Shown here one piece after another: positions 12,335 through 35,820 of a DNA stretch of 64,000 nt; position 1 is the first letter of the stretch, and each line of letters starts with the position of its first letter. Both the position numbers and the translations under genes were made by a program. The notes below the pieces were generated by a model that worked only from the letters and a program-made list of their open reading frames with translations, had not been told where the DNA came from and made no database searches. The DNA is taken from the NCBI GenBank assembly GCA_045634045.1, contig JAZQZN010000003.1, forward strand, positions 2,444-66,443, read 5' to 3'. This DNA is from Candidatus Enterocola sp. GTDB lineage: Bacteria; Bacteroidota; Bacteroidia; Bacteroidales; Paludibacteraceae.

Positions 12335-13864
12335 TTATTCTGCTTCCACCCAATCCCCATTGGCTTTAATAAGTTCAATAAGTCTCTCTACGGCTTCGTC
12401 TTCGGGAATATTTTTTTCGATGCAGGTTTGTCCTTTGTACAGGCTAATTTTGCCACGACCAGCCCCTACGTAGCCATAGTCGGCATCCGCCATTTCGCCA
12501 GGACCATTTACGATGCAGCCCATGATGCCAATTTTAAGGGTATTGAGGTGCGAAGTTTTTGCCTTGATGCGGGCAATAGCACTCTGAATATCGAACAGCG
12601 TACGACCGCACGAAGGGCACGAAATGTATTCTGTTTTGCTCATACGCGCACGCGCAGCTTGCAAAATGCTATAGCCCAATGCTTCGGTATCTGCTGCCGA
12701 AATGCCTTCTGCCTCGATGCAGATGCCATCGGCCAATCCGTCAATAAAGAAGCTACCCAACTCGGCAGCTGCGGTTAGCTGCAATTCATCAAGCGATAAC
12801 CCTTTGTATTTTCTGTACACAATAACAGGACTTTGGTTGCCCTCTTGCTGCATCTTGCCAAATAGGTAACGGCCTTGCTCCAAGGGGTTGTCGTGGTCCA
12901 AAGTCATCAGCACCACGCCTTCAGGCACTGTTGCGCCCGCTTGCCATACCACGGGCAATGCACCACCGCCAATTTCGCCCACCGCCACGCTTTGTCTGCG
13001 GCAGTAGCTTTCGCCATTGAACCAAGCACCATCCAGTGCAGGAAGTTCAGGGGCTTGCAAGGCTTTCTCTGCCAATGCCACCAGCTGTTTTGCCACAGGA
13101 ATTTCGTTGGCAGGGTCTTCGCTGAGCGACACACGAATGGTATCGCCAATACCTTCTAATAGCAAGGTGCCAATGCCCACTGCCGATTTAATGCGGCCGT
13201 CTTCGCCCTCGCCCGCCTCGGTAACGCCCAAGTGGATGGGGAAATTCAAACCTTCAGCATCCATGCGACGCACCATTTGGCGTACAGTATGGATCATAAC
13301 ACGGGTGTTCGATGCCTTTACCGAAATCACCACATTATTAAAAGCTTCTTCCTTGCAGATGCGCAAAAATTCCAAGCAGCTTTCGGTCATACCCTCTGGC
13401 GTATCGCCAAACTTATCGAGCATACGCGCACCCAACGAACCGTGGTTCACCCCAATACGAATGGCTGTGCCGTGCTCTTTGCACAAGGCCAAAAACGGAA
13501 TAAACTTGGCACGAATTTCCTCGTAGGTCGATGCATAGTTACCGGGGTTGATGCGCACTTTTTCGATGTGCAATGCCGCCTCGTTGGCCACGTTGGGGTT
13601 AAAATGCACGTCAGCCACCAAAGGGGTACTATAGCCTTTGGCACGAAGTTCCGCCTTAATATTGGCCATGTTAGCCGCCTCTTTTACCCCCTGTGTGGTA
13701 AGGCGCACCAATTCGCCACCCGCCTCAATCACCTCCATTGCTTGTGCCACGCAGGCCTCGGTATCGGTGGTAAAGGTGTTCAACATCGATTGTACACGAA
13801 TGGGATTGCTGCCCCCCATTTGTACGCTACCTATTTGTACGGTTTTGGTTGTTCTTCTGTTCAT
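12335..13864 (-). CDS. ispG: 4-hydroxy-3-methylbut-2-enyl diphosphate synthase (long form with insert domain)
   Basis: ORF 12335..13900, trimmed to MNRRTTKTVQIGSVQMGG. GcpE blocks VRVSLSEDP, CPSCGRT and GCIVNGPGE are present. Confidence 0.9.
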   Translation of the reverse strand: MNRRTTKTVQIGSVQMGGSNPIRVQSMLNTFTTDTEACVAQAMEVIEAGGELVRLTTQGVKEAANMANIKAELRAKGYSTPLVADVHFNPNVANEAALHIEKVRINPGNYASTYEEIRAKFIPFLALCKEHGTAIRIGVNHGSLGARMLDKFGDTPEGMTESCLEFLRICKEEAFNNVVISVKASNTRVMIHTVRQMVRRMDAEGLNFPIHLGVTEAGEGEDGRIKSAVGIGTLLLEGIGDTIRVSLSEDPANEIPVAKQLVALAEKALQAPELPALDGAWFNGESYCRRQSVAVGEIGGGALPVVWQAGATVPEGVVLMTLDHDNPLEQGRYLFGKMQQEGNQSPVIVYRKYKGLSLDELQLTAAAELGSFFIDGLADGICIEAEGISAADTEALGYSILQAARARMSKTEYISCPSCGRTLFDIQSAIARIKAKTSHLNTLKIGIMGCIVNGPGEMADADYGYVGAGRGKISLYKGQTCIEKNIPEDEAVERLIELIKANGDWVEAE

Positions 13865-14765
13865 GGTATGATTGAATGTATTTTGTAAGCTTCGATGCAC
13901 CGTTGGTGTTCAAGTGGTCGGCATCGTAAAAATCAGCATCGGTAAAGGTACTATCTTTTAGCAAATTTAGGTACGATGCGTTCGAAAATTTTGCAGCCAA
14001 CCCCTCGCATACCCGTTGTGTGGTGTGCCATTGTGCGCTGTCGAGGGCAGTGTAGTAGGCAGGATGCGTAGGTGTGGTGAGGAGCAAAACCTCGATGCCA
14101 CGTGCTTGGCAAGTGGCAATGATGTCAGCAAGGCGTGCCTCGTTGGTCGCTTGCACCATTGTGTCGATGGTTCTGCTGTGCGATGCCACCGTGTTGGTCG
14201 CCTGCTCCGCAAAATTAGGTTTTTGTAAGCCATATTCGCGCTTGCATCCCCAACCCAAGGAGTCACACGTCACAAAACTCCACTCTTTGCCCAGCATCTT
14301 TGCCAATCCCAACCATTTTTCCTTGTTGATGAGTTCCAAGTTAAAAATAGGATGTAGTCCATTGCCCTTGTAGCCCATGTAGATGGTGTAGCCTTTGGCA
14401 TGCGCCCATCCAGCCCCGTTTTCCAATTCGCCAAAGAGCGAAAAATACGAAACAGGCAACACCACGTAGCGTAGGTGGGGGCATTGGTCTGCCCATTGGT
14501 AAAACAAAAAGTGGTCGTATTTGATGCTTTGCGATGGCATGCCCAAGTTGTAGGCAGGCACTTCAAAACAATCGGGTCGGATGCCATAATGCCCGTGCGA
14601 CGAGCCAAACGAAAGCACCTCTACCTCTTTGCAGAGGCGTTGCATCTGTTCTTGCTTGTAGCGGTAGTCATTGTCGATGCTGCGCAAGCCCCATTCGATG
14701 CCGATGAGCAGCACCAAAAAAGGCAGCAAAAAGGTAACGATGGTTTTTAGAACAAATGTACGCAT
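13827..14765 (-). CDS. MBOAT-associated SGNH/DltD-like accessory protein (N-terminal membrane anchor)
   Basis: ORF 13827..14888, trimmed to MRTFVLKTIVTFLLPFLVLL (ATG 1 nt after the MBOAT stop). C-terminal FYDADHLNTNG resembles the D-x-x-H block of SGNH/DltD-type acyl-handling proteins. The 3' end overlaps the ispG start by 38 nt. Confidence 0.5.
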   Translation of the reverse strand: MRTFVLKTIVTFLLPFLVLLIGIEWGLRSIDNDYRYKQEQMQRLCKEVEVLSFGSSHGHYGIRPDCFEVPAYNLGMPSQSIKYDHFLFYQWADQCPHLRYVVLPVSYFSLFGELENGAGWAHAKGYTIYMGYKGNGLHPIFNLELINKEKWLGLAKMLGKEWSFVTCDSLGWGCKREYGLQKPNFAEQATNTVASHSRTIDTMVQATNEARLADIIATCQARGIEVLLLTTPTHPAYYTALDSAQWHTTQRVCEGLAAKFSNASYLNLLKDSTFTDADFYDADHLNTNGASKLTKYIQSYHEQKNNQNRTNR

Positions 14766-14766
14766 G

Positions 14767-16275
14767 CTAAAATTGGAAATAAATGAAATTTTGTTCAGGA
14801 CCCATGTTGATGATGCACAACGTAGCAAGCAGGAAATACAATCCGTAGCGCACCCATCGTTTAGGCAGGTGGGCAGCGCTGAGTCCATGCGGTTGTAGTC
14901 GATTGAACCATTCCATCACGAGCAAAATGGTAATCGATAGCCCAATAAACACCCTGTTGGTAATTTCGGGTAGGGTAAACAAGCTACCAGAAGCAATTTT
15001 ACCCATAATGAGCATTACCTGGTCGATGCTATCAGCCCTAAAAATGATCCAACCCACCACTGCCAATACGAAGGTGAGTGCCATGCACCCGATTTCGTGT
15101 AGGGTAGGTAGTCGTTTGCTGATGCTGCCGTCAGCTGCGGTGCTACTTGCCACCACGTTGGTGTACTTGCGGTTTTTACCCATCAAAATAAGGGGTAGAA
15201 ACAGCAAGGCATGGTAGGCACCCCACAGCAAAAAGGTCCAGTTGGCACCGTGCCAGAAGCCCGACAGCAAGAATATAATAAAGGTATTGCGCACCACTTT
15301 CCATTTGGTGGCCGCTTTGGGGTGGCGGCAAGTGGGCGAAATGGTGGGACGTGATCCACCCAACGGAATGTACACGTAATCCCTAAACCAGGTGGTGAGC
15401 GATATGTGCCACCTGCGCCAGAATTCAGCGATGTCGCGCGCAAAATAGGGTACATTAAAGTTGCGCATCAAGCGGATGCCAAACAGTTTGCCCAAGCCGA
15501 TTGCCATGTCGGAGTAGCCCGAAAAATCGCCATAAATCTGGAAGGTAAACAGCACCGCAGCCACTGCCAATGTGCTGCCGCTTTGTGCATCGGCATTGCC
15601 AAACACTGCATCCACTACCATGGCGCAGTTGTCGGCTACTACCACCTTTTTAAATAAGCCCCACAGCATTTGGCGCAAGCCATCCACGCTGTCGGCATAG
15701 TTAAAGGTGCGTTTGCCTAAAAATTGGGGCAGTAGGTTAGTAGCGCGCTCAATGGGCCCTGCCACCAGCTGCGGAAAGAAGCTCAAAAAGGCAGTAAAAG
15801 CCAGCATATCGGTGGTGGGTTGCAATTTGCCACGATACACATCGATGCTGTACGACAGTGCCTGAAAGGTATAAAAACTGATGCCAACAGGCAAGATGAG
15901 GTGCAGCAGGTGTTGCTCGGCATCCACACCGAGGCAAGCTGCCAACGAGCTAACAAAAAAGTCGTAGTATTTGTAGATGCCCAAAATCAGCAAATTCACC
16001 ACCACGTTGCCCAACATCCAAGCTTTTTTTGCCCAAGGTGCTTGGCTTCGACCAATGGCGATGCCGCTCACAAATGAGCAAAAGGTGGTAAAGGCAATGA
16101 GCAGCAAAAAACGCACATCCCACCAGCCATAAAACACATAGCTGGCAGCCACTACCAAGGCATTTTGGCAGAGCAGTTGCCATTTGCTGTTTTTCATGGC
16201 AGCACCAAATACCCACCAATACAGCACGTAAACGATGGGCAAGAAAATCAGAAATTCGAACGAATTAAAGAGCAT
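14767..16275 (-). CDS. MBOAT-family membrane O-acyltransferase (AlgI/DltB/PatA-like)
   Basis: 502 aa, polytopic. Signature FWRRWHISLTTWFRDYVYIPLGG. Confidence 0.85.
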   Translation of the reverse strand: MLFNSFEFLIFLPIVYVLYWWVFGAAMKNSKWQLLCQNALVVAASYVFYGWWDVRFLLLIAFTTFCSFVSGIAIGRSQAPWAKKAWMLGNVVVNLLILGIYKYYDFFVSSLAACLGVDAEQHLLHLILPVGISFYTFQALSYSIDVYRGKLQPTTDMLAFTAFLSFFPQLVAGPIERATNLLPQFLGKRTFNYADSVDGLRQMLWGLFKKVVVADNCAMVVDAVFGNADAQSGSTLAVAAVLFTFQIYGDFSGYSDMAIGLGKLFGIRLMRNFNVPYFARDIAEFWRRWHISLTTWFRDYVYIPLGGSRPTISPTCRHPKAATKWKVVRNTFIIFLLSGFWHGANWTFLLWGAYHALLFLPLILMGKNRKYTNVVASSTAADGSISKRLPTLHEIGCMALTFVLAVVGWIIFRADSIDQVMLIMGKIASGSLFTLPEITNRVFIGLSITILLVMEWFNRLQPHGLSAAHLPKRWVRYGLYFLLATLCIINMGPEQNFIYFQF

Positions 16276-17854: not shown

Positions 17855-18292
17855 TTACGCTTGTTGCATTCTTTTGCGGTATACCATAACCGCGCCGTAG
17901 GCAGCAACCATCATTAGCAAGAAGAACACAGGTGCGTCGAGGGGTTGACCAAGTTCTGGGTTTTCGCAGTTGGCATGACACTCGGCATTTTGTTTGAAAC
18001 AATCTTGCATACAGGCAGGATCGCCTGCACAGCTTGCAGCGCACTGATCCAATTCGCCTTCGCAGCAGGTTTTACAACTATTTATATCGCTTTGCCAAGA
18101 ATCTGGATTGCACGAACCATTATAGGCTCCTACGGTTGCTTGGTTTACAAAGCTAGTACCTGTGCTTATTGAATATCCTTTTTCTGCAGTAGCATTACTT
18201 ACGTATGAATTGTACGATTTACTTGGCAATCCTACAGCCATAGCGCAGGTAGCGCACATTGCCATTATTACAAATAAAATTTGTTTTTTCAT
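17855..18292 (-). CDS. small secreted Cys-rich protein with C-terminal PLDAP motif + TM helix + basic tail (module A, component 3)
   Basis: 145 aa. Signal peptide MKKQILFVIMAMCATCAMA; 10 Cys in the mature part (CKTCC core). C-terminus: QPLDAPVFFLLMMVAAYGAVMVYRKRMQQA. Paralogs at 40741-41163 and 50072-50500. Confidence 0.8.
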   Translation of the reverse strand: MKKQILFVIMAMCATCAMAVGLPSKSYNSYVSNATAEKGYSISTGTSFVNQATVGAYNGSCNPDSWQSDINSCKTCCEGELDQCAASCAGDPACMQDCFKQNAECHANCENPELGQPLDAPVFFLLMMVAAYGAVMVYRKRMQQA

Positions 18293-18298
18293 ATTTAT

Positions 18299-18315
18299 AA
18301 ATTTCTTCGAAATTT
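18299..18315 (-). promoter_or_regulatory. conserved hairpin just upstream of the small Cys-rich gene
   Basis: AAATTTC-TTC-GAAATTT, 7 nt from the ATG. The same stem occurs at 40719-40735 in the other arm, although the rest of the spacer is not conserved. Confidence 0.4.
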
Positions 18316-18390
18316 GACTAATTGGCTAATCGGTATCGGTGTTCCAAATTACGATTCACCGATTCACCGATTTATCGATTCATCTATTTA

Positions 18391-21300
18391 TTACTTTAAT
18401 ATTACTTTCTCTGTACGTGTTGTGTTATCGCCAATTACTTGTACAATATATACACCTTGCGATACGGGCAAACTAAGCGAAGCATAATTGCCTGAAACGT
18501 TGTATTGCATGGTTCTACCAGTCATATCACTCACATAAATAGTTTGCAATTCAACGCCATTTCCAAGAACATTGATTACACTACCGTCAGCCTCATCTAC
18601 GTAGATGCTAATCGAGTTGCTTTTTTCTTGTTCTTGTTCAATGTCGGTAGGAACGTCCTCGTCAGGAATAAATTCGGGTTCGGTACTTAAAACGATGTTC
18701 AAGAAATACCTGCCTTCGATATTGCCAGCAAGCAACACTTCGGTAGTATGTGCATTGCGAAGCAAGTCAATTTCCTGACCCGTATAAGAATCTACCAAAG
18801 TAGCATAGTCGATACCTTCGGCATAAACGCGTTCAAACTTAACGTTCATATCCATTTGCAAACGAATACCCAAAGGAATGGTCAACATCTGGTTACCAGC
18901 TGTATAGCGTGTATATTGCTTGTCGTTTGCCATGATGTACAACTCGGGCGAGTCGGCATTGGGCGCAAATACTTTTTCGATATCCGTAGCCGAACCATTA
19001 GTTACATCTACCTCGCTATCGTAGTGCAATGCCACGTTGCTAAATCCTTTTTGTGTATTAGCATTGTAAAGGTTAAGCGATAAGGTAGGAACGGTTGCCT
19101 CTGCGTCACGCGAGTGGGTATAACCATCGGCCAACATACCATCGGTAATAGTAAGCGATTTTTGCCCTGCACCTGGAGTAAAGATGAAACCGTGCTGAGG
19201 TCTTAGTAGAACCGCATTGGCTGTACTGGCTGTAGACATAAAGGTTGCTGCCTCGTAATTATAGAATAGTACGGTACCACCGCTTATTTTCTCTACCAAG
19301 CGAGCATCCAAGTTGCATGGATAGGTATTGTTAAGCAATACAGGAGTTCCTGCGGTTAAGTCGCTGTAAGTACGCATAGCACTTTCGTCGGCAAAACGAC
19401 CATTAAATTCGTACGATACAGGTGCGTTTGGATCAAAGTTGCCACCAAAATAGGGGTTATAATACCTAGCTGGCAATTTAAACTCGCCGTACTCGTCGGG
19501 AATATTGATGGCAAATACAGTTCCTGGTAATACACGGGTATATAAATCGGGGAAAGTATTACCCCAAGTTGCATTGCCTCCTGTAATTTCAGCTTGGTGC
19601 ATATACACTTGTGGCAAATAGTTTTTAAAGAAATGACCCGATAACAAATCGCTAGGCTCTCCATCTTCGTTAAATGGTTGAACAACACCACCCACTAATA
19701 CCCATTTGCTACGTGGAGCATCCAAGTGGGTAATGGCATTTTCGTAGTGAAGGTTGCCATTTTTGAGGTGCTCGATGCCTTTGATAGCAGCACCAGCCTC
19801 TACAATAATGGTTTTAGCAAACAAATCGCTTACAGGATTGTCCGCACCCAAACCAGCCGATACGTGTTCGTTATCTGCCATGTTGCTGCGGTTTTCTTCA
19901 AAGTTTGCAGGTATGCGTGGCCATTTTCTACCACCCGCAATTTCTACCGAACCTTTTTCTTCGATGACGGCGGTAAGGTCATTTTCTAACACGTTAACGC
20001 ACGATAAACGTTGACGTACAATTGCACGTGTTTTATCATCTTCTACTTCGTACTCCCAGTTGTTGCGGTCATCCCAGTCTTCCGAGATACCCACCCAGTA
20101 GATTTTGTCAACACCAATGCCTTCTTTCGATTGGTAAGCACCGTAGGTCCAGTCTTTGTTTGTGGTTGGACGTTGGTCTTTTAGGTAACGGTCCGAATAC
20201 CATTCGTCGTCGGTAAGGGTAATCTTCGTGATGCTAATGTCTGGTTTAACACCATAGTTGAGCGAAGTGTTTTTAATCATGAGCGATGCAGGGCCCGATG
20301 CGGTGGTAGCACACACAGCATCCGACACGTCAATAAACTTACCGTTGCTACAACCTCCGAAGTAGAATACCGATGGGTTCTTGCTATTTTTAACGTCGTA
20401 TTCGCTCCAGAAGTTGTTGGGGCAGAAGTTGTCGCCACTTACGTCTTTACCCAAGAAAGGATTGCTGCTCTTACCAGGACAGTCTAAATCGTAGCTATAG
20501 CAGTTGTTGTATTTAAACTGTACGCTATCAACGTTAATGTCTGCTGTTTCGGCAAACGACATAAAGTCGTAGGTAGATTTTGACGTAACATTATTGTTGG
20601 CAAAGTAGTACGTGTTGTAGTAGAAACCGATGTTTTTAACAGGGTTCCATTGGGTTACCAAACGCATGGCAGCTGGGTTGCGGTCGCCATCACCTGCCAA
20701 AAATTTATTGGTATTCCAGAACACGTTATTCATTACCAACATGTTTTTAACCTCTTGTATCCAAAGCAGCGTTGCGTGGTCGCCACGGAAGTTGTTTTGG
20801 ATAAACTTGATGTTTTTGCAGTACATCAACTTGAGTGAAGCACCCCATGTAATGGAGTTGGATGTGCCATTGTCAAATACTGATTCAAAATCGTTGTTTT
20901 TGAAGGTAATACCGTCGTAGCTCGAAATGTGTGCACCCGTAAAACCGTCCGAACCAATCATACAGTTCTGAATCACAATGTTGGCATTTTCTACATAGCC
21001 TTTGGTGTTCAATTCGTTCCACGAAGAACCTTGGGTGGCGTGGTCAATGTCCATTTCGATGGCGTTGTCGCCTTTGGTTTGTACACCTTCTTTGCTAGCA
21101 TCAGTGTCTGCAGGGTCAGAGAAAATAGCCAAACTGTCCAACACAATGTTTTTCGAGTTACGAATCACAATGTGGTGAATCCATGGTTTTGCTTTGCTAT
21201 CACCTGCCTTGATGGTAAGCGTGTGGGCTGCGTTGGCACCGCTACGGTTGATGTCTTGCAGCAAGTTGGAGTTATTGGGTTTTACGTTGCCAGCATATTT

Positions 21301-23514
21301 ACCAATGTTGGTAGTACCACGGTAGATGTATGCCGATTCGGTGTTCATGTCGTCGTTGTAGAACTTAACTTTCATGGTAACAGGCTGATTCAAGTTATAG
21401 CTATCGCCAACCTTGGTTACGTATTGATAATTGGCATCTGCACTGCTATACGAGTCTTTTAAACGATCGACAGCGCGTTGCAAGTTGCCGTAGGTTAGTG
21501 TACAATCGTCTTCGAAATTTTCGCCCAACGAAGCGTCAATGGTATAGGTAATGGGCGAGCCTTTTACAGGACGAGTGCTACAGTCTGCCAAACGGAAGTA
21601 GCCTGTTTCAGCACTGAGGTAAATCATGCCACCAATTTTTACGTAGGCTCTATAGCCGTAGGTCTTGCCTTTGCCAAGGATGCTGGTTTTAAGTGAGTAA
21701 CCTTCGCCACGGTATAGCTGAACGCCGCCTCCTGCCTTCAATTTTGGTGAGGATGCAGTTGGCGTACAACCTTCGGTTGATGTACCTGCGCAATACACAA
21801 AACCATATTCGACAATGGCATTACAGTAGGTTTCCGATAGGTAGCCGTACATGGTTACGGTGGCACCATCGGCATCTACAATGGCAGGGTTTGCCAATAA
21901 TACGGGGGTGGTGGTCACCACGCCGCAATCGCCCGAATATTTCACCAAGCTACCACTGTTGTCCCAATTTGTTACCTTAACACAAGTAGTAGTAGTAGTT
22001 AGCGAAAGGGTGGCAGAATAGTTCCATTGTCCATCATCGGCAGGATTGCAACGCAACACCTGAATTTTGGTGTAGTCGTTGAGGTTGAGTAGCTCGTCGA
22101 TGTAGTAAATGTTGGCATCGCTGCTACATTGAACCATGTCTTTGGTAACCGTACCGTTTTTGGTAGTGGTTAGTGTGGCTTTGAAGATGGCACCTTCTTT
22201 TGCCCATTCCGTAAAGCTGCTGAGGTCCAAATAGTAGGTACCATTTACTACGTCTTGCACATCGCCCGAGCAGTCAATAGTTTTTAAACTTGGTGTTGTG
22301 TTGCACCAGTCTTTAGACAGGTTATAGATGTAGCGTTTGCCTTTTACCAAGCCTGTGATGTCACTGGTTTTGCAACCATCACCTCCGTTGTTGAAGATAA
22401 TACTTAGGTTGTCGTAACCAGAAACTGTCCATACGGCATATTCTTCGCCGTTGTACATGCCTGTTTTTTGTTTAGTAGAACCTGCCCAGCCGCCCAATGG
22501 GTTTCTGCTGTTATCATTAGAATCCCATGCATAGCAGTGCATACCGATGTAGCTGTCAATGCCCTTGCACCAAATTTCAATGATGTCGCAATCCGTAAAA
22601 TCGGTTTCTTCGTCGTCATCGTCGTCGTCATCGCCAGAGCCGCCGCAGTCGCCTGAATGAGTTTCCCAACTACCTTCGCTATAATAGGTTGTGCCATTCC
22701 ATGTGCCATTTGAAGTAGTGCTTGGGACAAACATTGGCTTGTCTCCACATAAATCACCACGGTGAGCAGCTTGCGTATTATGAAAATTATCATAATTACC
22801 TTGTTCATCTTTAGTAAATGAGATATAGCCACTATGACCTGATGGATATTCAACTTTATAAATAGCATTATTGCCAGTCCCGCTACATAAAGTCATAGGG
22901 AGTGGACCTGCTTTAATGTCTTTAGAACCTGATCCATTTTGTTCATGCCAATATTCACCATTATATAGGTAAACATAAACGCTTGACCAATTTACGGTAT
23001 TCTTGAAGTAAATGGTAGTTGCGTTGGTATTGCATGCTGGAGTATAGTTTGCGTAATCTTGTTTTGTAAGGTTATAAACGCCATTTGATAATGTAGGGAT
23101 ATAAATATATGCAGTAGCATCATCTCTACTTATATTTATAGCTTTTGTATAATTTTTGTCACCTTGATAAACTAAACGTGTATCTAGGGATTCATTTGCT
23201 CCAGATTTACTCCATTGGTCTTTAGCGAATGCTATTTGTGTAGCATCATCCCAATAAGTAACATTATCACATTTAAAAATATTGCCACTTACTTTTGTCA
23301 TTTGCCAATCACTACGAGAATAGCTTCCATGTCCCATATATAGGTAGATGCTACTTTCAGGCCACTGTGTATTGGTATTATCAAAATAAATTGTAACAGT
23401 GGCTGCACCCCACGCACTACCGCTAACGCCTAATAGAACGCAAAGTAAGGCAAGCACTCGTAGGACTTTACTAAAAGCCCCACTCATAATTGTATTGTTA
23501 TAAAATCTTTTCAT
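18391..23514 (-). CDS. giant T9SS-secreted protein: CBM-like/FN3-like N-terminal modules, conserved beta-helix core, type-A T9SS C-terminal sorting domain (module A, component 2)
   Basis: 1707 aa. Signal peptide MKRFYNNTIMSGAFSKVLRVLALLCVLLGVSGSAWG. Parallel beta-helix-like repeats: HHIVIRNSKNIVLDSL, NIVIQNCMIGSDGFTGAHISSYDGITFKNNDFE, CKNIKFIQNNFRGDHATLLW and MNNVFWNTN. WDDRNNWEY block. C-terminal LQTIYVSDMTGRTMQYNVSGNYASLSLPVSQGVYIVQVIGDNTTRTEKVILK is a typical T9SS tail. Confidence 0.85.
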   Translation of the reverse strand: MKRFYNNTIMSGAFSKVLRVLALLCVLLGVSGSAWGAATVTIYFDNTNTQWPESSIYLYMGHGSYSRSDWQMTKVSGNIFKCDNVTYWDDATQIAFAKDQWSKSGANESLDTRLVYQGDKNYTKAINISRDDATAYIYIPTLSNGVYNLTKQDYANYTPACNTNATTIYFKNTVNWSSVYVYLYNGEYWHEQNGSGSKDIKAGPLPMTLCSGTGNNAIYKVEYPSGHSGYISFTKDEQGNYDNFHNTQAAHRGDLCGDKPMFVPSTTSNGTWNGTTYYSEGSWETHSGDCGGSGDDDDDDDEETDFTDCDIIEIWCKGIDSYIGMHCYAWDSNDNSRNPLGGWAGSTKQKTGMYNGEEYAVWTVSGYDNLSIIFNNGGDGCKTSDITGLVKGKRYIYNLSKDWCNTTPSLKTIDCSGDVQDVVNGTYYLDLSSFTEWAKEGAIFKATLTTTKNGTVTKDMVQCSSDANIYYIDELLNLNDYTKIQVLRCNPADDGQWNYSATLSLTTTTTCVKVTNWDNSGSLVKYSGDCGVVTTTPVLLANPAIVDADGATVTMYGYLSETYCNAIVEYGFVYCAGTSTEGCTPTASSPKLKAGGGVQLYRGEGYSLKTSILGKGKTYGYRAYVKIGGMIYLSAETGYFRLADCSTRPVKGSPITYTIDASLGENFEDDCTLTYGNLQRAVDRLKDSYSSADANYQYVTKVGDSYNLNQPVTMKVKFYNDDMNTESAYIYRGTTNIGKYAGNVKPNNSNLLQDINRSGANAAHTLTIKAGDSKAKPWIHHIVIRNSKNIVLDSLAIFSDPADTDASKEGVQTKGDNAIEMDIDHATQGSSWNELNTKGYVENANIVIQNCMIGSDGFTGAHISSYDGITFKNNDFESVFDNGTSNSITWGASLKLMYCKNIKFIQNNFRGDHATLLWIQEVKNMLVMNNVFWNTNKFLAGDGDRNPAAMRLVTQWNPVKNIGFYYNTYYFANNNVTSKSTYDFMSFAETADINVDSVQFKYNNCYSYDLDCPGKSSNPFLGKDVSGDNFCPNNFWSEYDVKNSKNPSVFYFGGCSNGKFIDVSDAVCATTASGPASLMIKNTSLNYGVKPDISITKITLTDDEWYSDRYLKDQRPTTNKDWTYGAYQSKEGIGVDKIYWVGISEDWDDRNNWEYEVEDDKTRAIVRQRLSCVNVLENDLTAVIEEKGSVEIAGGRKWPRIPANFEENRSNMADNEHVSAGLGADNPVSDLFAKTIIVEAGAAIKGIEHLKNGNLHYENAITHLDAPRSKWVLVGGVVQPFNEDGEPSDLLSGHFFKNYLPQVYMHQAEITGGNATWGNTFPDLYTRVLPGTVFAINIPDEYGEFKLPARYYNPYFGGNFDPNAPVSYEFNGRFADESAMRTYSDLTAGTPVLLNNTYPCNLDARLVEKISGGTVLFYNYEAATFMSTASTANAVLLRPQHGFIFTPGAGQKSLTITDGMLADGYTHSRDAEATVPTLSLNLYNANTQKGFSNVALHYDSEVDVTNGSATDIEKVFAPNADSPELYIMANDKQYTRYTAGNQMLTIPLGIRLQMDMNVKFERVYAEGIDYATLVDSYTGQEIDLLRNAHTTEVLLAGNIEGRYFLNIVLSTEPEFIPDEDVPTDIEQEQEKSNSISIYVDEADGSVINVLGNGVELQTIYVSDMTGRTMQYNVSGNYASLSLPVSQGVYIVQVIGDNTTRTEKVILK

Positions 23515-23547
23515 ATTGTGTATTTTTATTTTATTCTTACTAAGGTT

Positions 23548-26500
23548 CTATTTTTTGATAATTTCAGGATCGCAATCTTCGGTTACATCCATAAGGATAA
23601 TGTTGGCAGTAGCCTCGTTGTTGTCAACCGTACCGCACGCATTTTCGCCCGACACCTCGATGGTAGCCTTTACGTTGTATTGTTTGCTGCGCGCAGTGCC
23701 GTTGCCACCTGTGCCCCAGTCGGATGGACGAGGAATGCGGATGTTCAACATGTGTCCGCTTTCGCTAATGATGGCGCCGTCGGCATCCAACTCGTCGTGG
23801 CTAAGGGTATATTCGTAGCCTTCTGGAGCTTGTACGTTGATGTTGACTCCTTTCCATGGAGTGGTTTCTGCGTTGGCAGGCGATAGGATAAAGATGAGTG
23901 CCTGACCAGTTAGTTTGTCTAACTCTTCGGTTAGCTTAGGAATACGGTTGGTTACCCATGTGGTAATGGCACCCTTAGAGCCTTCGTGGGTGGTAGCAGC
24001 ACCGCAGTTCTCGCCAAATCCATAGTAGCCCATGGCTTTTGAACCAGTACATGAGCTGGTAGCACCACGACCAGTAGCAGTGTTGTCGTTAAATGGTAGC
24101 ATGGCCTCTTCGCGGTCAATGGCATCGTCCAATTCTTCTGCAAAGGCAGCTACTTTCTTAGAAATGTTGGCAGTGGTGAGCACGCCACCTTCGGCAGTAT
24201 AGGCCGCCCATTTACTTTTTACCGTACTCACAAAGCATGGGTCGTTTAGCAAACCACCAGTGATGCTGGTGCCGCCGCCTGTAAACCAGAATGGGGCTTT
24301 GAAATTGTCGCTATATACTCCGCTGTCTTTAATCAAAAGTCCGTCGGTGCTATGTGCGTTTTTTGCTGAAATATTGGCAGTAACGTTGTTGAAGCTTAGC
24401 TCTTGGTCCCAAAGGGGTTGTGCTTCAATTTTGTCGCCGTTGTACACAAATAGGCAGCTTGCACGGTAGGCATCCAAGTTTTTGGTATATTCGTTGATGA
24501 TGAACCAATCTGCCCAGCTGTTGTAGTCAATGAGTTGACGTACTTTTTCGTATTCTTTGTTGTAGAGCGCAGTTTCAAATTCTTCGAAACGTTCTTGAAT
24601 AATTTTATAAACACTGGTCCAGTTGCCACCTTCGTCTTCGATGTCTTCTTTTTCGGGGTATTCAATTTCGAAAAGTTGATCGACTTTGGTGTCGTAGGTG
24701 GTAATATCTTTTTTACCTGTACGGGTGGTGGCAAAGGTTTTTTGGTCGCCTTCGGTGTTTTCAACGCGGTCAACTTTGTCGGTTTTGTCGAATTTTACAA
24801 TAAAGCCGTTGTAGTCGGTAATGTTGACACGTTTTTCGTTCATCGTGATTTTGTCCATCAATACGTACACACCTTTGTATTCGTTGTTGATGATGAGCTC
24901 TACGTACATGGAGTTAACGCCCCATTTGCCAGTCATTTCTTTGTAGAGGTCAAATACCAAACGGTTACGCATCATAGAGGGGTCTGGGGTAGCTGCATAA
25001 AGCACCCAGTCTTTGTCTTTAGCACCGTCAGATAGTCCAAATAGGTTGGCTTTGCCCGTATCTACGTCGCCATCGCTGTTCTTGGTTTTTTCTTTACCTG
25101 TTACAAAGGCATACGATTTTTTCTTAAAGTTGAGCGACGACGAACCACGGTAGTTGATGCGTCCTTTGCGGTCGTATTGCAAGGTTCCATTGGGGTTATA
25201 GATGCGCACGTCAACCGAAATCTTCTTTTTCATGCCATCGATGTTGGTCGATGGGTAGTTTTGGCCCACAACTGAACATTCGTCAGGAAGCGATTTGCTA
25301 CCAGTGTTGATCGAAATAACAGGCATGTCAAAGTTGGCAAATGCGTTGATGGCAGGAGCAGTGCCTGTTGTGCCTGTCACTTGTAGGGCATTGGATGTTT
25401 GTGTTTCGTTGCTGCCTTCGTAGCTAATCAAACAGCGGTAGTAGCCCACCTTGTCGGCACGCCAGTTGTTACATGCCGCTGTTCCGTTTGTCATGCCTAC
25501 TGCTTTGTCTGCGTAGTTGGTGGTGCAATTTGCCCAGTCAGATGTGCCATTGGCAGAGAATTGCCATGTGTAGCCCTTAACGGCGGTGGCACCTGCTACG
25601 TCAACAATACCATCTTTTTGCACATACATGGGCACAAAGTCGGTGATGATGTTGGTGCAGAGTTTCAAATCGCCCAATTGAATGATTTTAACACCAGCTT
25701 CTTGCACCTCTAATGTAACTGGTTTAGAAGTTGCAGTTAATGCTGGACACACTTTGCTAGTTGCAGTTACGGTGTATTCATAATTGCGAGCCTCGCCAAT
25801 ATTTATTGTTGTTGCAGCTGTATAGTCTCCTGCTGATTTACCATCTTTTTTAATTGTATAGTTGAAATCAGGATCATAATTACTAACTGTTAATGTTGTA
25901 GGTTTGTTTTGACCTACTGGATTTGGAGAGATTGTAACCACAGGGGTTTGAGGAGCAGGATAAAGTGTTAATGATAATGTAGATGCATCAGAAGCACAAC
26001 CACCGTCTTCTATTCTTGCATAATATATTTTATTTGAACTAATACTTACAGTAGCAGAAGCAGGAGTATTACATTCTGGGTCAGAATACCACTTAACACC
26101 ATCTATTCCATTATTATAATCACTTAATGTGATGTTTGTATTTGGACAAACAACACCAGATGCTATAATGCCAGGGGCATCTGGAATCTCATCGCAAGTA
26201 GTTTTTACATCTTGCACTGCAGAGTAAGTAAATAGCTCTGAACATGTTTTGGTATTAGCAGATATGCGCACTTGATAATCAGAACCAGCCACTAAGTCTT
26301 CAATTGAACATGTTGCATTACCAGAACCCTTTAAGCTTTGATTACATTTTTTTGCATTAGCCCAATCTCCACCCTTCTCAATACACTCAACTACCATACT
26401 TTGTAAGTCGCTACCTGTAATGGTTGCTTGAACAGTAATGCCATAGCTATATGGAGTTATTTTAATACTAGATATAGTTGGAGTATAAATATTGACAGTT

Positions 26501-27681
26501 ACATATGAACTATTTGCAGAAGAGCATAAACCATCTTTTAATACAGCATAATATTGTGTTGTAGCGGAGATGCTCACGATAGTTGGGTCTGCCACTTTTG
26601 TACCATCTTTTTTATACCATTCTAATGTACCTGCACCGCTATCGGTTCTAGGGAATAGCTCATTTAAGTTAAAAGCAACATTTTTGCATGCAATTTTAGA
26701 ACTTACAGAGAAAGTAGGAGCCGCTATTGTTGGACAAGGAACTTCTACTTCCTTAGGTTCTGAAGAATAAACCCATGGACTTCCATAAATGTATGTTCTA
26801 AACTCGTATGTATTTCCTGCCTTAGGTGTAAATGTATCTGTATCTTCACCATCTACATCGGTTTGTTTTGTAACATAACCACTATTTGAATTTGGGTCAT
26901 TCTCTGCACACCATTCTTGACCTTTTATTCTCCATTGAAAACCATGATATTGTGTACCACAAGTAGTAAAGTTACCTACTAAACTGATAGTGCCATTTTG
27001 GTTTAATGTAGCAGATGTGATAGAGGTTGAAGGGGTGCAAGCTAGTTCCCATTGAGCATAAAGAGTAGCTGCCTCGTTTGCTGTATAAGAAGCACCTGAT
27101 GCATATGAAGTGCCTGTGCCGTCAGCTTTTGTATTCCAATTTTGGAAGGTGTAACCTGAACGAGTAGGTTCGGTTGTGCTCAGTGTCAAAGCTTTATCAT
27201 GATTTTTAGTTTGAGAAGAAGGAGCCTCAGAACCGCCATTTGCATTATAAGAAATAGTATATGTAGGTAAAGTTGCCTTTACATATGTTGTATTGGAACT
27301 TGTAACGTAATAGATAATTACAGTATATTTAGCAGTACTTGAAGCTAAGGTAAATTTAACGTTATCTCCTGTTACTGATGTGAAATTAGAAATCGAAGAA
27401 ACACCTGAAGAAGAACTAGTTGAAGTTTTTACCCAGTGCCAGTTGTTTCCATTTTCAACAATACGATACTCGTAGTTTCCTGCTGCAAGTTGAAAAGTTG
27501 CTGAAACAGTCCCCGAACCAGACATTGCATTTGCTGTTGTATTCCAGCTATTCATAGTGCCAGCTACATACATTGTAGCCCACACACTACTTGTTCCTAC
27601 AAGCATCATTAGGGCCATGATAAGCCACCTTGCGCTTAGGCGCGAGGTAAATTGTTTAAAATTGTTTGTAAAATTTTTCAT
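23548..27681 (-). CDS. giant secreted CotH-family (atypical kinase-like) protein with N-terminal CBM-like, Listeria-Bacteroides repeat and Cys-containing Ig-like modules (module A, component 1)
   Basis: 1377 aa. Sec signal peptide. YTISYNANGGSEAP...GYTFQNWNTKADGTGTSY...LYAQWE is a Listeria-Bacteroides (Flg_new) repeat. CotH blocks lie at ~24390-25230: RINYRGSSSLNFKKKSYAF, DKDWVLYAATPDPSMMRN, YKGVYVLMDKIT, FEIEYPE, ADWFIINEYTKNLDAYRAS, PLWDQELSF. No T9SS tail was recognised. Confidence 0.85.
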   Translation of the reverse strand: MKNFTNNFKQFTSRLSARWLIMALMMLVGTSSVWATMYVAGTMNSWNTTANAMSGSGTVSATFQLAAGNYEYRIVENGNNWHWVKTSTSSSSGVSSISNFTSVTGDNVKFTLASSTAKYTVIIYYVTSSNTTYVKATLPTYTISYNANGGSEAPSSQTKNHDKALTLSTTEPTRSGYTFQNWNTKADGTGTSYASGASYTANEAATLYAQWELACTPSTSITSATLNQNGTISLVGNFTTCGTQYHGFQWRIKGQEWCAENDPNSNSGYVTKQTDVDGEDTDTFTPKAGNTYEFRTYIYGSPWVYSSEPKEVEVPCPTIAAPTFSVSSKIACKNVAFNLNELFPRTDSGAGTLEWYKKDGTKVADPTIVSISATTQYYAVLKDGLCSSANSSYVTVNIYTPTISSIKITPYSYGITVQATITGSDLQSMVVECIEKGGDWANAKKCNQSLKGSGNATCSIEDLVAGSDYQVRISANTKTCSELFTYSAVQDVKTTCDEIPDAPGIIASGVVCPNTNITLSDYNNGIDGVKWYSDPECNTPASATVSISSNKIYYARIEDGGCASDASTLSLTLYPAPQTPVVTISPNPVGQNKPTTLTVSNYDPDFNYTIKKDGKSAGDYTAATTINIGEARNYEYTVTATSKVCPALTATSKPVTLEVQEAGVKIIQLGDLKLCTNIITDFVPMYVQKDGIVDVAGATAVKGYTWQFSANGTSDWANCTTNYADKAVGMTNGTAACNNWRADKVGYYRCLISYEGSNETQTSNALQVTGTTGTAPAINAFANFDMPVISINTGSKSLPDECSVVGQNYPSTNIDGMKKKISVDVRIYNPNGTLQYDRKGRINYRGSSSLNFKKKSYAFVTGKEKTKNSDGDVDTGKANLFGLSDGAKDKDWVLYAATPDPSMMRNRLVFDLYKEMTGKWGVNSMYVELIINNEYKGVYVLMDKITMNEKRVNITDYNGFIVKFDKTDKVDRVENTEGDQKTFATTRTGKKDITTYDTKVDQLFEIEYPEKEDIEDEGGNWTSVYKIIQERFEEFETALYNKEYEKVRQLIDYNSWADWFIINEYTKNLDAYRASCLFVYNGDKIEAQPLWDQELSFNNVTANISAKNAHSTDGLLIKDSGVYSDNFKAPFWFTGGGTSITGGLLNDPCFVSTVKSKWAAYTAEGGVLTTANISKKVAAFAEELDDAIDREEAMLPFNDNTATGRGATSSCTGSKAMGYYGFGENCGAATTHEGSKGAITTWVTNRIPKLTEELDKLTGQALIFILSPANAETTPWKGVNINVQAPEGYEYTLSHDELDADGAIISESGHMLNIRIPRPSDWGTGGNGTARSKQYNVKATIEVSGENACGTVDNNEATANIILMDVTEDCDPEIIKK

Positions 27682-27785
27682 AAATATCGATATTTTGTTT
27701 GTTTATTTTGTTCGTGTTTACACGTGTTATTTTCGTTTGGTTTCACCCTCGCTGCGCTTCGGGTGAGGGAGGGGCGCTTTCCTAT

Positions 27786-27850
27786 CCCTGCGTTGCGCTC
27801 GCAAGCTCGCTTAACACAGGGTTATTACCAAGGACAACCCCTGCGGGGTA
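27786..27850 (-). repeat. REP-like structured repeat (copy C)
   Basis: CCCTGCGTTGCG..CTTAACACAGGGTTA..ACCCCTGCGGGGTA (reverse orientation), 1 nt downstream of the PD-(D/E)XK gene stop. Confidence 0.85.
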
Positions 27851-27851
27851 A

Positions 27852-28478
27852 TTAAAAGCTTGCATCGCCCCAACGATACCAAAATTCATTAAAAAGGTCA
27901 CTTTCGGTTTGTATGTCGTTTTCGAGTAACTCATAAAACGAAAACAATTTGAATGCTGGTTTGGTATCGACTTCTGCTAGGTTGCCAAAATGCCTTATAA
28001 AAGGTGCGCTATTTCTTTCTAAACAGGTTATTAGGGCGTAATGCTTTTGCCACGTTTCTGATTGACTGTTATAGTGCGCATCGAACTTATTTTTGTACGC
28101 TACTAACTGATTCCTTTTTACGCCATCTATATCGGTTGCATCGTGCAAGCCTGTCAAATACTTGTTTTCTATTAGCAAGGCGTATTTGGTTATCTCGCCC
28201 CTTTGCTCTACATCAACCTCTACTCGCAAATCAATATCCTCCCACTGTTTCCAAACTTTTACGTTGCTAAAGATTACATCGTCTGTGTTTTCTATACTCA
28301 ATAACTTGCCAAGCATAAACCTGCAATGGCTGTATAGAATGGGTTTTTCGTCCTTGCAAATACCATCTGCTCTGCGCAAGCACCACGATATTACATAATC
28401 CATCATGCATTCTGCTTTGCCATTTTTCTCGGTCTGATCAACCATCAATTGAGGCATATCCGTTCTGTTGCTTTTCAT
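27852..28478 (-). CDS. PD-(D/E)XK nuclease-superfamily protein (PDDEXK_4-like), first gene of arm A
   Basis: 208 aa. E..(MDYVISWCL).. IDL .. LLIENKY gives an E / D / ExK arrangement, and QLVAYK follows. Paralog at 30995-31621. Confidence 0.6.
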   Translation of the reverse strand: MKSNRTDMPQLMVDQTEKNGKAECMMDYVISWCLRRADGICKDEKPILYSHCRFMLGKLLSIENTDDVIFSNVKVWKQWEDIDLRVEVDVEQRGEITKYALLIENKYLTGLHDATDIDGVKRNQLVAYKNKFDAHYNSQSETWQKHYALITCLERNSAPFIRHFGNLAEVDTKPAFKLFSFYELLENDIQTESDLFNEFWYRWGDASF

Positions 28479-28538
28479 TGCGTTTGTTTTAGGTATTTAC
28501 GTCCCATCACTCCCGAAGCATAGTATCTTCTTTCCTAT

Positions 28539-28603
28539 CCCTGCGTTGTGCTCGCAAACTCGCTTAACACAGGGTTATTACTAAGGACAACCCCTGCGGG
28601 GTA
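28539..28603 (-). repeat. REP-like structured repeat (copy D)
   Basis: CCCTGCGTTGTG..CTTAACACAGGGTTA..ACCCCTGCGGGGTA, 60 nt upstream of the PD-(D/E)XK start. Confidence 0.85.
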
Positions 28604-28968
28604 AGTTCTCGCTCCTAACTCCAAAACCGTCGGTTTCATCGGTGATTTTGGGACGCTACTGCCCATAGATTAACACAGGATCTCTTAACAAGAGAGCATT
28701 GATCACATCGCACAAAGAGCTCATAATTAGACAACAAGCCCGTGAGCCTATTGTAGGCGGGGTATTGGCTTTTAATCCGCTGAAAATCAATAATTTAACC
28801 GCTCTAAAATCTGCGCATAGTTATAGTCTAATCCGCACAAAGTTACGGACTATCAGTCACTTATGCAAACTTTTATTAAGTTTTTTTATAAATTAGGGTG
28901 ATTTTTAACGTTAGATTTTTACTGCCTTATGCTGATCGCGTTGGAGTGCTGCCATTAGAGCGGTATTG

Positions 28969-29910: not shown

Positions 29911-30087
29911 ATGAACAGAAAACCAAAAGAGCCGTATTTTCAAGGCACAGAGCCTGTTTACGGCAAGGCGGCAAAACGCCTACATCGTCTAATTATGAAC
30001 CCTCCCAAGGCTACTCCCGAGGAAAAAGAAAGAATGAGACAGAATTGCGAGTATTTTAAAAGTATCTCAACTTGTAAATTGTTATGA
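29911..30087 (+). CDS. 58-aa protein, putative antitoxin partner of the GNAT toxin (family not recognised)
   Basis: ORF 29755..30087, trimmed to MNRKPKEPYF downstream of the -7 box. Its stop overlaps the GNAT start (ATGA, 30084-30087). The sequence does not look like DUF1778 to me. Confidence 0.4.
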   Translation: MNRKPKEPYFQGTEPVYGKAAKRLHRLIMNPPKATPEEKERMRQNCEYFKSISTCKLL

Positions 30088-30617
30088 ATTCATTTCTTCA
30101 AAACCGCAGGTTTCGCCAATTAGAAGAGGGCGAAATTATAAAATCGTTCAACTGCGGTGATGCTGAGTTGAACGATTTTATTTTAACCAAAGCTGATCTG
30201 TACAAAAAATCATTGCTATCCGTAACGTATATACTTGAAGAAGGCGATGTTACGCTTGCTTACTTTTCGTTGTCAAACGATAGTCTTCGACACGAAAACT
30301 TTCGCAACACATCTTCATTTAATCGATTAAATCGTAGAATAAATAACGCGAAGCGAATGCGCGAATATCCAGCCATTAAAATAGGCAGATTTGCGGTGAA
30401 CAATGATTGCAAACACAGTCGCATGGGCAGTTCTTTATTAGACCATATCAAATTGTCTCTTATCGAAAACCCACAATCTGGTTGCCGTTTTATTACGGTC
30501 GATGCCTATAACGATGCGGTGGGTTTCTACCAGCGCAACGGCTTTATGCTGGTCAATGAATTCCAAGCGGACAGGCGCACGCAACCCATGTTTTTTGACT
30601 TAGCGCAGCTGCTGTAA
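30084..30617 (+). CDS. GNAT-family acetyltransferase of the TA-toxin type (TacT/AtaT-like)
   Basis: 177 aa. The N-terminal FNCGDAELNDFIL, then YPAIKIGRFAVNNDCKHSRMGSSLL and NDAVGFYQRNGF, follow the pattern of GNAT toxins. It is 4-nt coupled to a small upstream ORF. Confidence 0.6.
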   Translation: MNSFLQNRRFRQLEEGEIIKSFNCGDAELNDFILTKADLYKKSLLSVTYILEEGDVTLAYFSLSNDSLRHENFRNTSSFNRLNRRINNAKRMREYPAIKIGRFAVNNDCKHSRMGSSLLDHIKLSLIENPQSGCRFITVDAYNDAVGFYQRNGFMLVNEFQADRRTQPMFFDLAQLL

Positions 30618-30690: not shown

Positions 30691-30868
30691 ATGTCTTCAC
30701 ATTCTGCATTTTTACGTCTATATCCTACTTATTACCCGTTACTTTTCTACAAAACAAGTAGTGCATTTTAACAAACTCTCTTGTTAAGAGATCCTGTGTT
30801 AATCTATGGGCAGTAACGCCCCAAAACCACCGATGAAACCGACGGTTTTGGAGTTAGGAGTGAGAACT

Positions 30869-30933
30869 TACCCCGCAGGGGTTGTCCTTGGTAATAACCC
30901 TGTGTTAAACGAGCTTGCGAGCGCAACGCAGGG
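30869..30933 (+). repeat. REP-like structured repeat (copy E)
   Basis: TACCCCGCAGGGGTTGTCCTTGGTAATAACCCTGTGTTAAACGAGCTTGCGAGCGCAACGCAGGG. Confidence 0.85.
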
Positions 30934-30994
30934 ATAGGAAAAGGTGGGACTATGCTTCGTGAGTGATGGGACGTAAATACCTAAAACAAACGCA

Positions 30995-31621: not shown

Positions 31622-31622
31622 T

Positions 31623-31687
31623 TACCCCGCAGGGGTTGTCCTTGGTAATAACCCTGTGTTAAGCGAGCTTGCGAGCGCAACGCAGGG
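31623..31687 (+). repeat. REP-like structured repeat (copy F)
   Basis: Differs from copy E at one position by eye. Starts 1 nt after the PD-(D/E)XK stop. Confidence 0.85.
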
Positions 31688-31791
31688 ATAGGAAAGCGCC
31701 CCTCCCTCACCCGAAGCGCAGCGAGGGTGCAACCAAACGAAAATAACACGTGTAAACACGAAAAAAATAAACAAACAAAATATCGATATTT

Positions 31792-35781: not shown

Positions 35782-35820
35782 ATTTAGAACCTTAGTAAGA
35801 ATAAAATAAAAATACACGAT

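Follow-up and report, generated by a model that had tools for sequence, protein, structure and literature searches.

A family of small cysteine-rich proteins paired with giant type IX secretion cargo in gut Paludibacteraceae carries a family-specific, PID-CTERM-like tail that probably acts as a membrane anchor

What is the function of a C-terminal tail that has the layout of a processed sorting signal but is found on three small cysteine-rich proteins encoded within a single stretch of bacterial DNA? The stretch analyzed here (hereafter, the window) comprises 64 kb of contig JAZQZN010000003.1 from Candidatus Enterocola sp. (Bacteroidales, Paludibacteraceae). Each of the three proteins, denoted small1, small2 and small3, ends in a PLDA(P/S) motif followed by a transmembrane (TM) helix and a basic cluster. 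The original prediction, made from the sequence alone, proposed that this tail is a new processed sorting signal, with a plain type I membrane anchor as the simpler alternative. We found that the three proteins represent a conserved family whose genes are consistently paired with genes for giant type IX secretion system (T9SS) cargo proteins, and that the tail was detected in this family only. The interpretation that we favor, with a probability of roughly 55%, is that the small proteins are periplasmic partners of the giant T9SS cargo, anchored in the inner membrane by a family-specific, PID-CTERM-like tail. The three proteins and their tails are encoded as follows.

17855-18292, minus strand: small1, 145 aa; signal peptide at residues 1-19 (18236-18292); predicted periplasmic ectodomain with 10 Cys
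17858-17944, minus strand: tail of small1 (residues 117-145); PLDAP, TM segment, YRKRMQQA
40741-41163, plus strand: small2, 140 aa; signal peptide at 40741-40797; six-Cys core only
41074-41160, plus strand: tail of small2 (residues 112-140); PLDAP, TM segment, YRRKTASV
50072-50500, plus strand: small3, 142 aa; signal peptide at 50072-50128; 8 Cys
50411-50497, plus strand: tail of small3 (residues 114-142); SLPLDAS, hydrophobic segment of only ~15 aa, RKYR

Residues of small1 are numbered here on the full-length protein (M1 = 18290-18292); in the alignments and the AlphaFold model, the numbers run one lower, C61 being C60 there. The homologous start of small2 is the ATG at 40741 (in the list of open reading frames [ORFs], this frame extends to a TTG at 40669). 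The three proteins are clear paralogs: BLASTP comparisons among them gave E-values of 1.4e-42, 2.8e-16 and 1.1e-11, and small2 and small3 are, respectively, 54% and 38% identical to small1. For small1, small2 and small3, in this order, the signal peptides end in AMA, AMA and VYA; the mature N-termini read VGLPSKSY, VSLPSNSY and VSMPSKSY; the ectodomains contain 10, 6 and 8 Cys (the TM segment of small2 holds one extra); the cysteine cores are CKTCC, CATECC and CAECC; and the tails are PLDAPVFFLLMMVAAYGAVMVYRKRMQQA, PLDAPVYCLMLMVAAYGAVVVYRRKTASV and PLDASLLMLLGMVAAYGVRKYRMAASEKE. An ATVG(A/T)Y block is present in all three. Re-examination thus bore out the descriptive part of the original prediction, namely, the coordinates and strands of the three ORFs and their paralogy, the signal peptide, the mature N-terminus and the ATVG(A/T)Y block, the recounted cysteines and their cores, and the three C-termini as read from the translations.

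Comparison of the three proteins with Pfam, NCBIfam and PADLOC yielded nothing meaningful, and none of them contains the T9SS type A C-terminal domain (CTD; TIGR04183). They belong to a real, conserved and previously unannotated family. A word-indexed protein search recovered 34 clusters at 90% identity, all unnamed, and a second, profile-based search recovered 123 clusters at 90% identity, none with a functional name. A HMMER scan of 1.84 billion representative sequences with the family profile identified 111 proteins (E <= 1e-3), corresponding to ~111 clusters at 50% identity; all but ~10 of them (short fragments and two repeat artifacts) match over the full length at 120-170 aa. The family gave no Pfam or NCBIfam match above cutoff.

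In the alignment of these 111 members, Ala occupies position -1 of the signal peptidase site in 92% of the sequences, and the mature N-terminus is conserved at L22 (95%), P23 (100%), S26 (88%) and Y27 (86%). Six Cys residues (C61, C73, C76, C77, C105 and C109) are near-invariant. In the tail motif, P117 and L/I/V118 are each conserved in 98% of the members, and position 119 is Asp in 65%, Gly in 27% and Glu in 5%. The motif begins 3-11 residues past the last Cys, right behind the final CX3C of the family; 15-20 residues separate it from the first basic residue, and the basic stub then extends over 5-12 aa. The window proteins belong to the tail subtype PLDAPTAFLLALVAAYGAVAVYRKR; the other subtypes are SLPLDAPLWFMLALAALGAAFSV, SLP(L/I)DGGLSILL..LAGGA and SLPLG(S/T)(P/A)L(L/W)LLPFA..Y. 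Because the same layout recurs in 111 representative clusters with near-invariant positions, it is far beyond chance, and this conservation rules out the reading of the three genes as chance ORFs.

The topology check suggested in the original prediction, for a signal peptide plus one TM segment, gave a consistent picture. Kyte-Doolittle profiles contain exactly two hydrophobic segments per small protein, the signal peptide and the C-terminal segment, and AlphaFold2, run on the 111-sequence alignment (mean pLDDT 76), modeled the latter as a TM helix. The predicted helices (model numbering) are the signal helix (3-16), the two helices of a hairpin (69-86 and 91-109) and the TM helix (121-143); pLDDT is ~90 for the hairpin and the TM helix, and confidence is low for the arm (20-65) and for the linker that contains the PLD motif. 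All features of type I topology are present, that is, a signal peptide composed of an n-region with KK, an h-region and an (A/V/S)-x-A site, a C-terminal TM segment and an Arg/Lys-rich stub, which points to the inner membrane as the likely location of these proteins and to their probable retention there. Given that Cys residues are located at i and i+4 on both hairpin helices (C73/C77 and C105/C109 in small1), the model suggests two inter-helix disulfides, along with a C61-C76 bond that would join the arm to helix 1.

When the PDB was searched with Foldseek, no match with E < 1 was obtained, and a PDB profile search returned nothing significant; helical hairpins are a generic fold. In spacing and predicted fold only, the family resembles the twin-CX3C/CHCH hairpins (such as the small Tim chaperones of the mitochondrial intermembrane space), in which two antiparallel helices likewise carry Cys at i and i+4 each, in an oxidizing compartment between two membranes. 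There is no Pfam, Foldseek or PDB profile match between them, and the small proteins differ in having a putative third disulfide, a signal peptide and a TM anchor.

Several other readings of these sequences were rejected. The small proteins contain no lipobox, and the h-region Cys is missing from small3 and many homologs, so they are not lipoproteins. The residues that follow the Asp of PLD do not fit the Bacteroidetes O-glycosylation motif D-(S/T)-(A/I/L/V/M/T); the cytoplasmic stub, at 5-12 aa, is too short for an anti-sigma or sensor role; and weak matches to DLW-39, presenilin and LolA are noise that comes from TM or signal-peptide composition.

Which genes accompany the small genes? Each of the three in the window follows a gene for a giant protein, and two of the giant genes are preceded by a gene for a CotH kinase-like protein.

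18391-23514, minus strand: giant1, 1707 aa; signal peptide, module similar to carbohydrate-binding module (CBM) family CBM26, β-helix body, T9SS type A CTD; stop codon 98 nt before small1
35821-40644, plus strand: giant2, 1607 aa; T9SS type A CTD; stop codon 96 nt before small2
41264-50056, plus strand: giant3, ORF of 2930 aa; CotH domain, β-helix body, T9SS CTD; stop codon 15 nt before small3
23548-27681, minus strand: CotH1, 1377 aa; signal peptide, Listeria-Bacteroides repeat, CotH kinase-like domain, no T9SS CTD; immediately upstream of giant1
31792-35781, plus strand: CotH2, 1329 aa; paralog of CotH1 with signal peptide and no T9SS tail; immediately upstream of giant2

All three giants combine a signal peptide, a β-helix body and a homologous T9SS type A CTD. 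The TIGR04183 scores (cutoff 23) are 29.9 bits for giant1, 24.9 bits for giant2 and 18.3 bits for giant3, whose CTD is homologous to those of the other two despite the score below the cutoff. The giant1 and giant2 proteins are paralogs with 46% identity across ~1390 aa. A PDB sequence search with giant1 returned nothing. The giant3 protein is a natural fusion with a CotH domain at residues ~816-1230: its residues ~650-1240 align with CotH1 and CotH2, and residues ~1850-2930 constitute the giant β-helix T9SS protein. The true start of giant3 is probably the internal, signal-peptide-like MKSFLRFSS...IPTWG, 38 codons past 41264. Because CotH and the giant are fused in giant3, the two appear to be functionally tied. 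The window thus contains three cassettes, for which the usual order is CotH, giant, small.

We examined 28 copies of the small gene, from the window, genome loci, metagenome contigs and contigs with distant subtypes. In 27 of these, the small gene starts 7-165 nt past the stop codon of a giant homolog on the same strand, and the remaining copy sits at the end of a truncated contig; no orphan small genes, without a giant, were seen. Because 27 of the 28 copies follow a giant, the pairing of the small protein with the giant T9SS family is genetically obligate, and the two genes are probably co-transcribed. The flanks downstream of the small genes vary (murF, acetyl-CoA hydrolase, defense genes or CotH). 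In a scan of GTDB representative genomes, which do not include the window's own genome, the family was found only in Paludibacteraceae or uncultured Bacteroidales metagenome-assembled genomes (MAGs) from the hindgut of cattle, yak and sheep, each with two or three copies of the small gene; the housekeeping genes of the window are 80-95% identical to those on family-bearing Paludibacteraceae MAG contigs. Literature searches for a CotH-T9SS module or for Paludibacteraceae with T9SS found nothing relevant.

The location of a small gene immediately behind the gene for a giant β-helix exoprotein recalls CdiA-CdiI and, within the T9SS of Flavobacterium, SprB-SprF. By analogy with CdiI, the small protein could be an immunity- or inhibitor-type partner that neutralizes a harmful activity of the giant or of CotH in the producer cell; it would be anchored on the periplasmic face, a location suited to protection of the periplasm, and its hypervariable middle would track effector specificity, a scheme that would hold whether or not the tail is processed. 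Multiple divergent cassettes in each genome and conserved termini around a variable middle (32% amino acid identity among close copies) are what such a partner might be expected to show, but domain and PDB searches detected no toxin domain in the giants, divergence of the small proteins proceeds at much the same pace as that of the conserved bodies of the giants, and the absence of orphan small genes among the copies seen also argues against immunity. Furthermore, the giants of the pairs described here vary in their N-terminal part, which resembles CBM, Ig or fn3 binding modules, and end in the conserved T9SS CTD. CdiI is a cytoplasmic immunity protein and SprF is an outer-membrane barrel of the PorP/SprF type, whereas the small protein is a Sec-exported, TM-anchored Cys hairpin. 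We consider an immunity- or inhibitor-type role of this kind distinctly improbable.

How strongly is the tail itself constrained? Among 13 close copies, amino acid identity is 64% in the tail and 32% in the middle, and the tail core PLDAPTAFLLALVAAYGAVAVYR is often identical, with identical tail residues occurring in copies that elsewhere share 30-45% identity. Such a pattern could arise if the tail were a generic hydrophobic anchor and its conservation a by-product of gene conversion between cassettes, with the conserved ends as recombination anchors. In line with this explanation, identity at 4-fold degenerate sites under conserved residues is slightly elevated in the tail (0.53, against 0.39 in the middle and 0.32 in the head), DNA identity exceeds 90% across species at cassette junctions, and the C-terminal stubs are distributed as a mosaic. 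However, ~47% of the 4-fold sites within the tail differ although the amino acids are identical, which indicates that selection acts on the tail peptide, and distant subgroups, whose DNA is unrelated, still have the motif Pro and the TM pattern. Gene conversion as the sole cause of the conservation is thus highly improbable; the tail peptide itself is constrained, perhaps with some gene conversion in addition. The constraint would be consistent with a specific intramembrane, helix-helix contact with a partner protein or an enzyme.

The junction segments themselves (23403-23559, 35780-35927, 40597-40760 and 18209-18294) are 91-97% identical at the DNA level between paralogs and across species, and the adjacent gene bodies show only 35-70% protein identity. 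These segments cover the 3' end of CotH together with the giant signal peptide MKRFYNNT..., and the 3' end of the giant gene together with the start of the small gene. The alternative C-terminal stubs MQQA, AGEKVA, TKVTKTM, TNATVA and MQECNE recur in a mosaic fashion on otherwise divergent small proteins. The near-identical junction DNA and the mosaic stubs suggest recombination between cassettes at their conserved ends.

Does the tail direct processing? The motif, hydrophobic helix and basic cluster, an N-terminal Sec signal and multiple carriers within a genome are features shared with the PEP-CTERM/exosortase, GlyGly-CTERM/rhombosortase, LPXTG/sortase and PGF-CTERM/archaeosortase systems. 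The motif differs from those of all four, the family has no credible hidden Markov model (HMM) match to them, and no cognate enzyme gene was seen in the window. In addition, those signals decorate many unrelated proteins, whereas the tail of the small proteins occurs on one family only. The original prediction called for a search for other proteins ending in PLDA[PS], a TM segment and an [RK] cluster; by four routes, we found such tails solely on the one small-protein family, and divergent tails on other proteins would escape carrier searches at these database sizes. First, in the family-profile scan of the 1.84 billion representatives, there was no large or unrelated protein matching the tail alone (a near-consensus tail alone should give ~40 bits, as estimated from two short fragments, and 36 bits already corresponds to E = 1e-3). 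Second, a peptide-pattern scan of GTDB genomes gave 26 pattern matches, with relatives confirmed only for nine family loci. Third, when 241 million metagenome records were scanned with a degenerate DNA pattern for LLAL(V/I)AAYGAV, the hits comprised three family genes and four internal segments of unrelated ORFs. Fourth, a regular-expression scan of 1362 ORFs in 322 kb (the window plus the loci) detected 28 tails, 28/28 in the family. A word search with a 44-aa tail query was uninformative, returning only two fragments of the small-protein family.

Candidate processing enzymes were sought in the gene neighborhoods. The 64-kb window encodes no exosortase, rhombosortase, rhomboid, CPBP protein or unexplained polytopic membrane protein, and there is no candidate among the genes listed beside related cassettes. 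Two further features count against a general sorting signal: the motif directly follows the last CX3C of the family and hence is not a portable module, and its Asp is replaced by Gly in ~27% of the members.

The original prediction also held that PLDA(P/S) matches no known signal. This is correct for the tails of small1 and small2, which match no CTERM model, but a curated relative does exist and aligns in register with distant members of the family. This relative, NCBIfam NF046080 (NF046080.1; "PID-CTERM protein-sorting domain"), is a 25-position HMM and was the only recurrent match, found in 13 of the 111 members. In these alignments, the Leu of (S)LP(I/L)DGG always pairs with model position 1, and the aligned region continues across the TM segment as far as the basic cluster; the best score was 24.1 bits (E = 2.4e-5, member P0074), another member (P0060) scored 17 bits across model positions 1-25, and every family score falls below the curated cutoff of 26 bits. 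As for the window, small1 and small2 gave no match at E <= 10, and small3 gave a weak, in-register match of 9.7 bits. The model consensus is LPIDGG followed by a TM segment and basic residues. The family shares the placement of motif, TM segment and basic cluster at the extreme C-terminus; the window tails, with PLDAP or PLDAS, have P-(L/I)-D and a TM/basic part compatible with the model but not the Gly-Gly, and they miss the model because A-P or A-S stands where it has G-G. Synthetic peptide probes showed that the G-G pair matters most for the score: the window-type consensus with A-P replaced by G-G (LPLDGG) scored 19.5 bits and, with Leu also changed to Ile (LPIDGG), 22.7 bits over the full model, and the Leu-to-Ile change alone (LPIDAP) gave no match. 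For PEP-CTERM, no domain match at E <= 1 was found in the window proteins or the 111 members, the one floc_PepA match being in the N-terminal signal region. Other CTERM models (VPLPA-, Loki-, MYXO- and JDVT-CTERM) produced only isolated weak matches (E 0.1-1.1) to single sequences. The literature searched contained nothing relevant on PID-CTERM/NF046080 and its processing or on XrtF.

These in-register matches, and the effect of the G-G swap in the probes, are among the reasons to consider that the tail is a processed sorting signal of the PID-CTERM class, which an intramembrane enzyme encoded elsewhere (exosortase-, rhombosortase- or CPBP-like) would cut at or near P-L-D. The Cys-hairpin protein would then be released or re-anchored, for example, on the cell surface beside the T9SS-displayed giant. 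The tripartite architecture at the extreme C-terminus, the near-invariant Pro and Leu/Ile of the motif, the short hydrophobic spans with Pro or Gly, the strong purifying selection on the TM sequence and the several copies per genome all fit this possibility. It is harder to reconcile with PID-CTERM scores that stay below the cutoff, with a tail seen on no other protein family in the searches made, with the Asp-to-Gly replacements, with the lack of an enzyme candidate in the window or among the genes listed beside related cassettes, and with literature searches that found nothing on PID-CTERM processing; also, to our knowledge, exosortases are generally absent from Bacteroidales. On balance, processing of the tail is possible but doubtful. 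The more specific scenario, in which P-(L/I)-(D/G)-small-small, the TM segment and the basic cluster constitute a true processed PID-CTERM-class signal that brings the disulfide-hairpin protein to the surface beside a T9SS-displayed giant β-helix/CotH complex, we regard as unlikely. If it were true, a single surface machine would be supplied by two different sorting pathways, and this in gut Bacteroidales, for which no use of exosortase-type systems is known. What stands of the processed signal originally proposed is the tripartite layout, which is real and under selection at the protein level; what does not is its generality, the tail being restricted to one family in the searches made and without a candidate enzyme among the window genes.

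The simpler alternative offered by the original prediction, a type I anchor that holds a disulfide-rich periplasmic domain, is judged the most likely. We prefer an anchor over processing because the tail is limited to one family and is contiguous with its Cys domain, because the mature N-terminal motif is equally conserved yet cannot be a C-terminal sorting signal, and because no enzyme gene is nearby. Weighing against this preference, the motif, short hydrophobic stretch and basic stub make up the exact layout of processed sorting signals; the hydrophobic stretch is only ~15 residues long in small3 and the PLG-type members; a generic anchor would not require such sequence conservation; and 13 distant members align in register with a curated sorting-domain model.

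Under the anchor interpretation, the small protein would be exported by Sec and cut by signal peptidase I after (A/V/S)-x-A, exposing the V-x-L-P-x-x-S-Y N-terminus. A flexible arm of ~40 residues, which contributes one Cys, would lead into a helical hairpin; the six conserved Cys would staple this structure, with CX2-3CC located on its first helix and CX3C on its second. The (S)LP(L/I)(D/G)(small)(P/G/S) hinge, 3-11 residues further on, would cap a single stop-transfer TM helix, and the Lys/Arg-rich stub of 5-12 residues would be kept in the cytoplasm by the positive-inside rule, which would place the ectodomain at the inner membrane, on its periplasmic side. In this position, it would most likely act on its cognate giant, and possibly on CotH, ahead of export by the T9SS, as an escort, holdase or inhibitor; the indication of such an effect on the giant is gene linkage. 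The PLDA(P/S) tail could then be understood as a lineage-specific variant of a PID-CTERM-type tripartite domain that serves primarily as a sequence-specific membrane anchor.

The spacers between the giant and small genes have a distinct architecture in two of the three cassettes.

40645-40740, plus strand: giant2-small2 spacer; long hairpin of tandem GGTGATN units and their complements (-33 kcal/mol, z = -5.7)
18293-18390, minus strand: giant1-small1 spacer; same architecture, with AATCGGTG-type units (-22 kcal/mol, z = -2.6)

These spacers are imperfect palindromes of tandem 7-8-nt units; the unit differs by cassette, and the architecture is kept. In the giant2-small2 spacer, a small conserved hairpin, AAATTTC-GAA-GAAATTT, directly precedes the start codon of the small gene. 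The spacer of the third cassette (giant3-small3) is only 15 nt long. The palindrome may be an intercistronic attenuator or stabilizer. Rfam and tRNA scans of the window were empty.

The region between CotH1 and CotH2 is organized around an inverted repeat of ~1.1 kb, the arms of which (27579-28696 and 30776-31894) are 92-95% complementary and surround a 2.1-kb center that carries a GNAT gene (30084-30617). Each arm includes the 5' end of a CotH gene and encodes a 208-aa cytoplasmic protein (27852-28478, minus strand; 30995-31621, plus strand); the two proteins are 85% identical and contain a PD-(D/E)xK-like D..E.K motif, with no family match. As the inverted repeat flanks a shared center, the CotH1 and CotH2 cassettes are mirror images of each other.

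Several other window genes likely function in the envelope. An FGE-sulfatase-family protein (54143-55666; GldJ/PorK-like) and a 1011-aa TPR protein (57684-60719; SprE/PorW-like) are possible T9SS components. The next gene (60723-62402), likewise a possible T9SS component, encodes a 559-aa protein with a signal peptide and a ...GVTFSF end typical of outer-membrane β-barrels, with no Pfam match; the TPR protein and the following gene of ~560 aa recur beside a cassette in a related locus (L015). Between folP (52941-53777) and the GldJ-like gene, segment 53746-53985 is 91-96% identical to segments of two other loci (L001 and L002), where it is in the opposite orientation relative to the neighboring conserved genes; it has no Rfam match and may be a promoter/regulatory region or a small mobile segment. 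Immediately past murF, the neighbor of small1, lie the genes for an MBOAT-family O-acyltransferase (14767-16275) and, beside it, for a single-TM protein (13827-14888) that matches DUF1574 weakly. These two resemble an AlgI/DltB-type pair and are syntenic in loci L008 and L009; no evidence links the pair to the cassette.

The biogenesis of T9SS cargo is known mainly from Porphyromonas and Flavobacterium, and we know of no cargo-specific, inner-membrane-tethered accessory protein in the textbook picture of this system. Here, an unannotated family of ~140-aa proteins is genetically locked to giant T9SS and CotH kinase-like proteins, with several divergent cassettes per genome, in uncultured ruminant-gut Paludibacteraceae. 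The resulting three-gene module is open to tests of secretion assistance, inhibition or surface assembly, and the family offers a first biological context for a tail related to the NCBIfam PID-CTERM model. Processing of the tail would point to a sorting pathway as yet undescribed for Bacteroidales; with an unprocessed tail, this would be an ordinary family of bitopic proteins with an unusually constrained TM helix.

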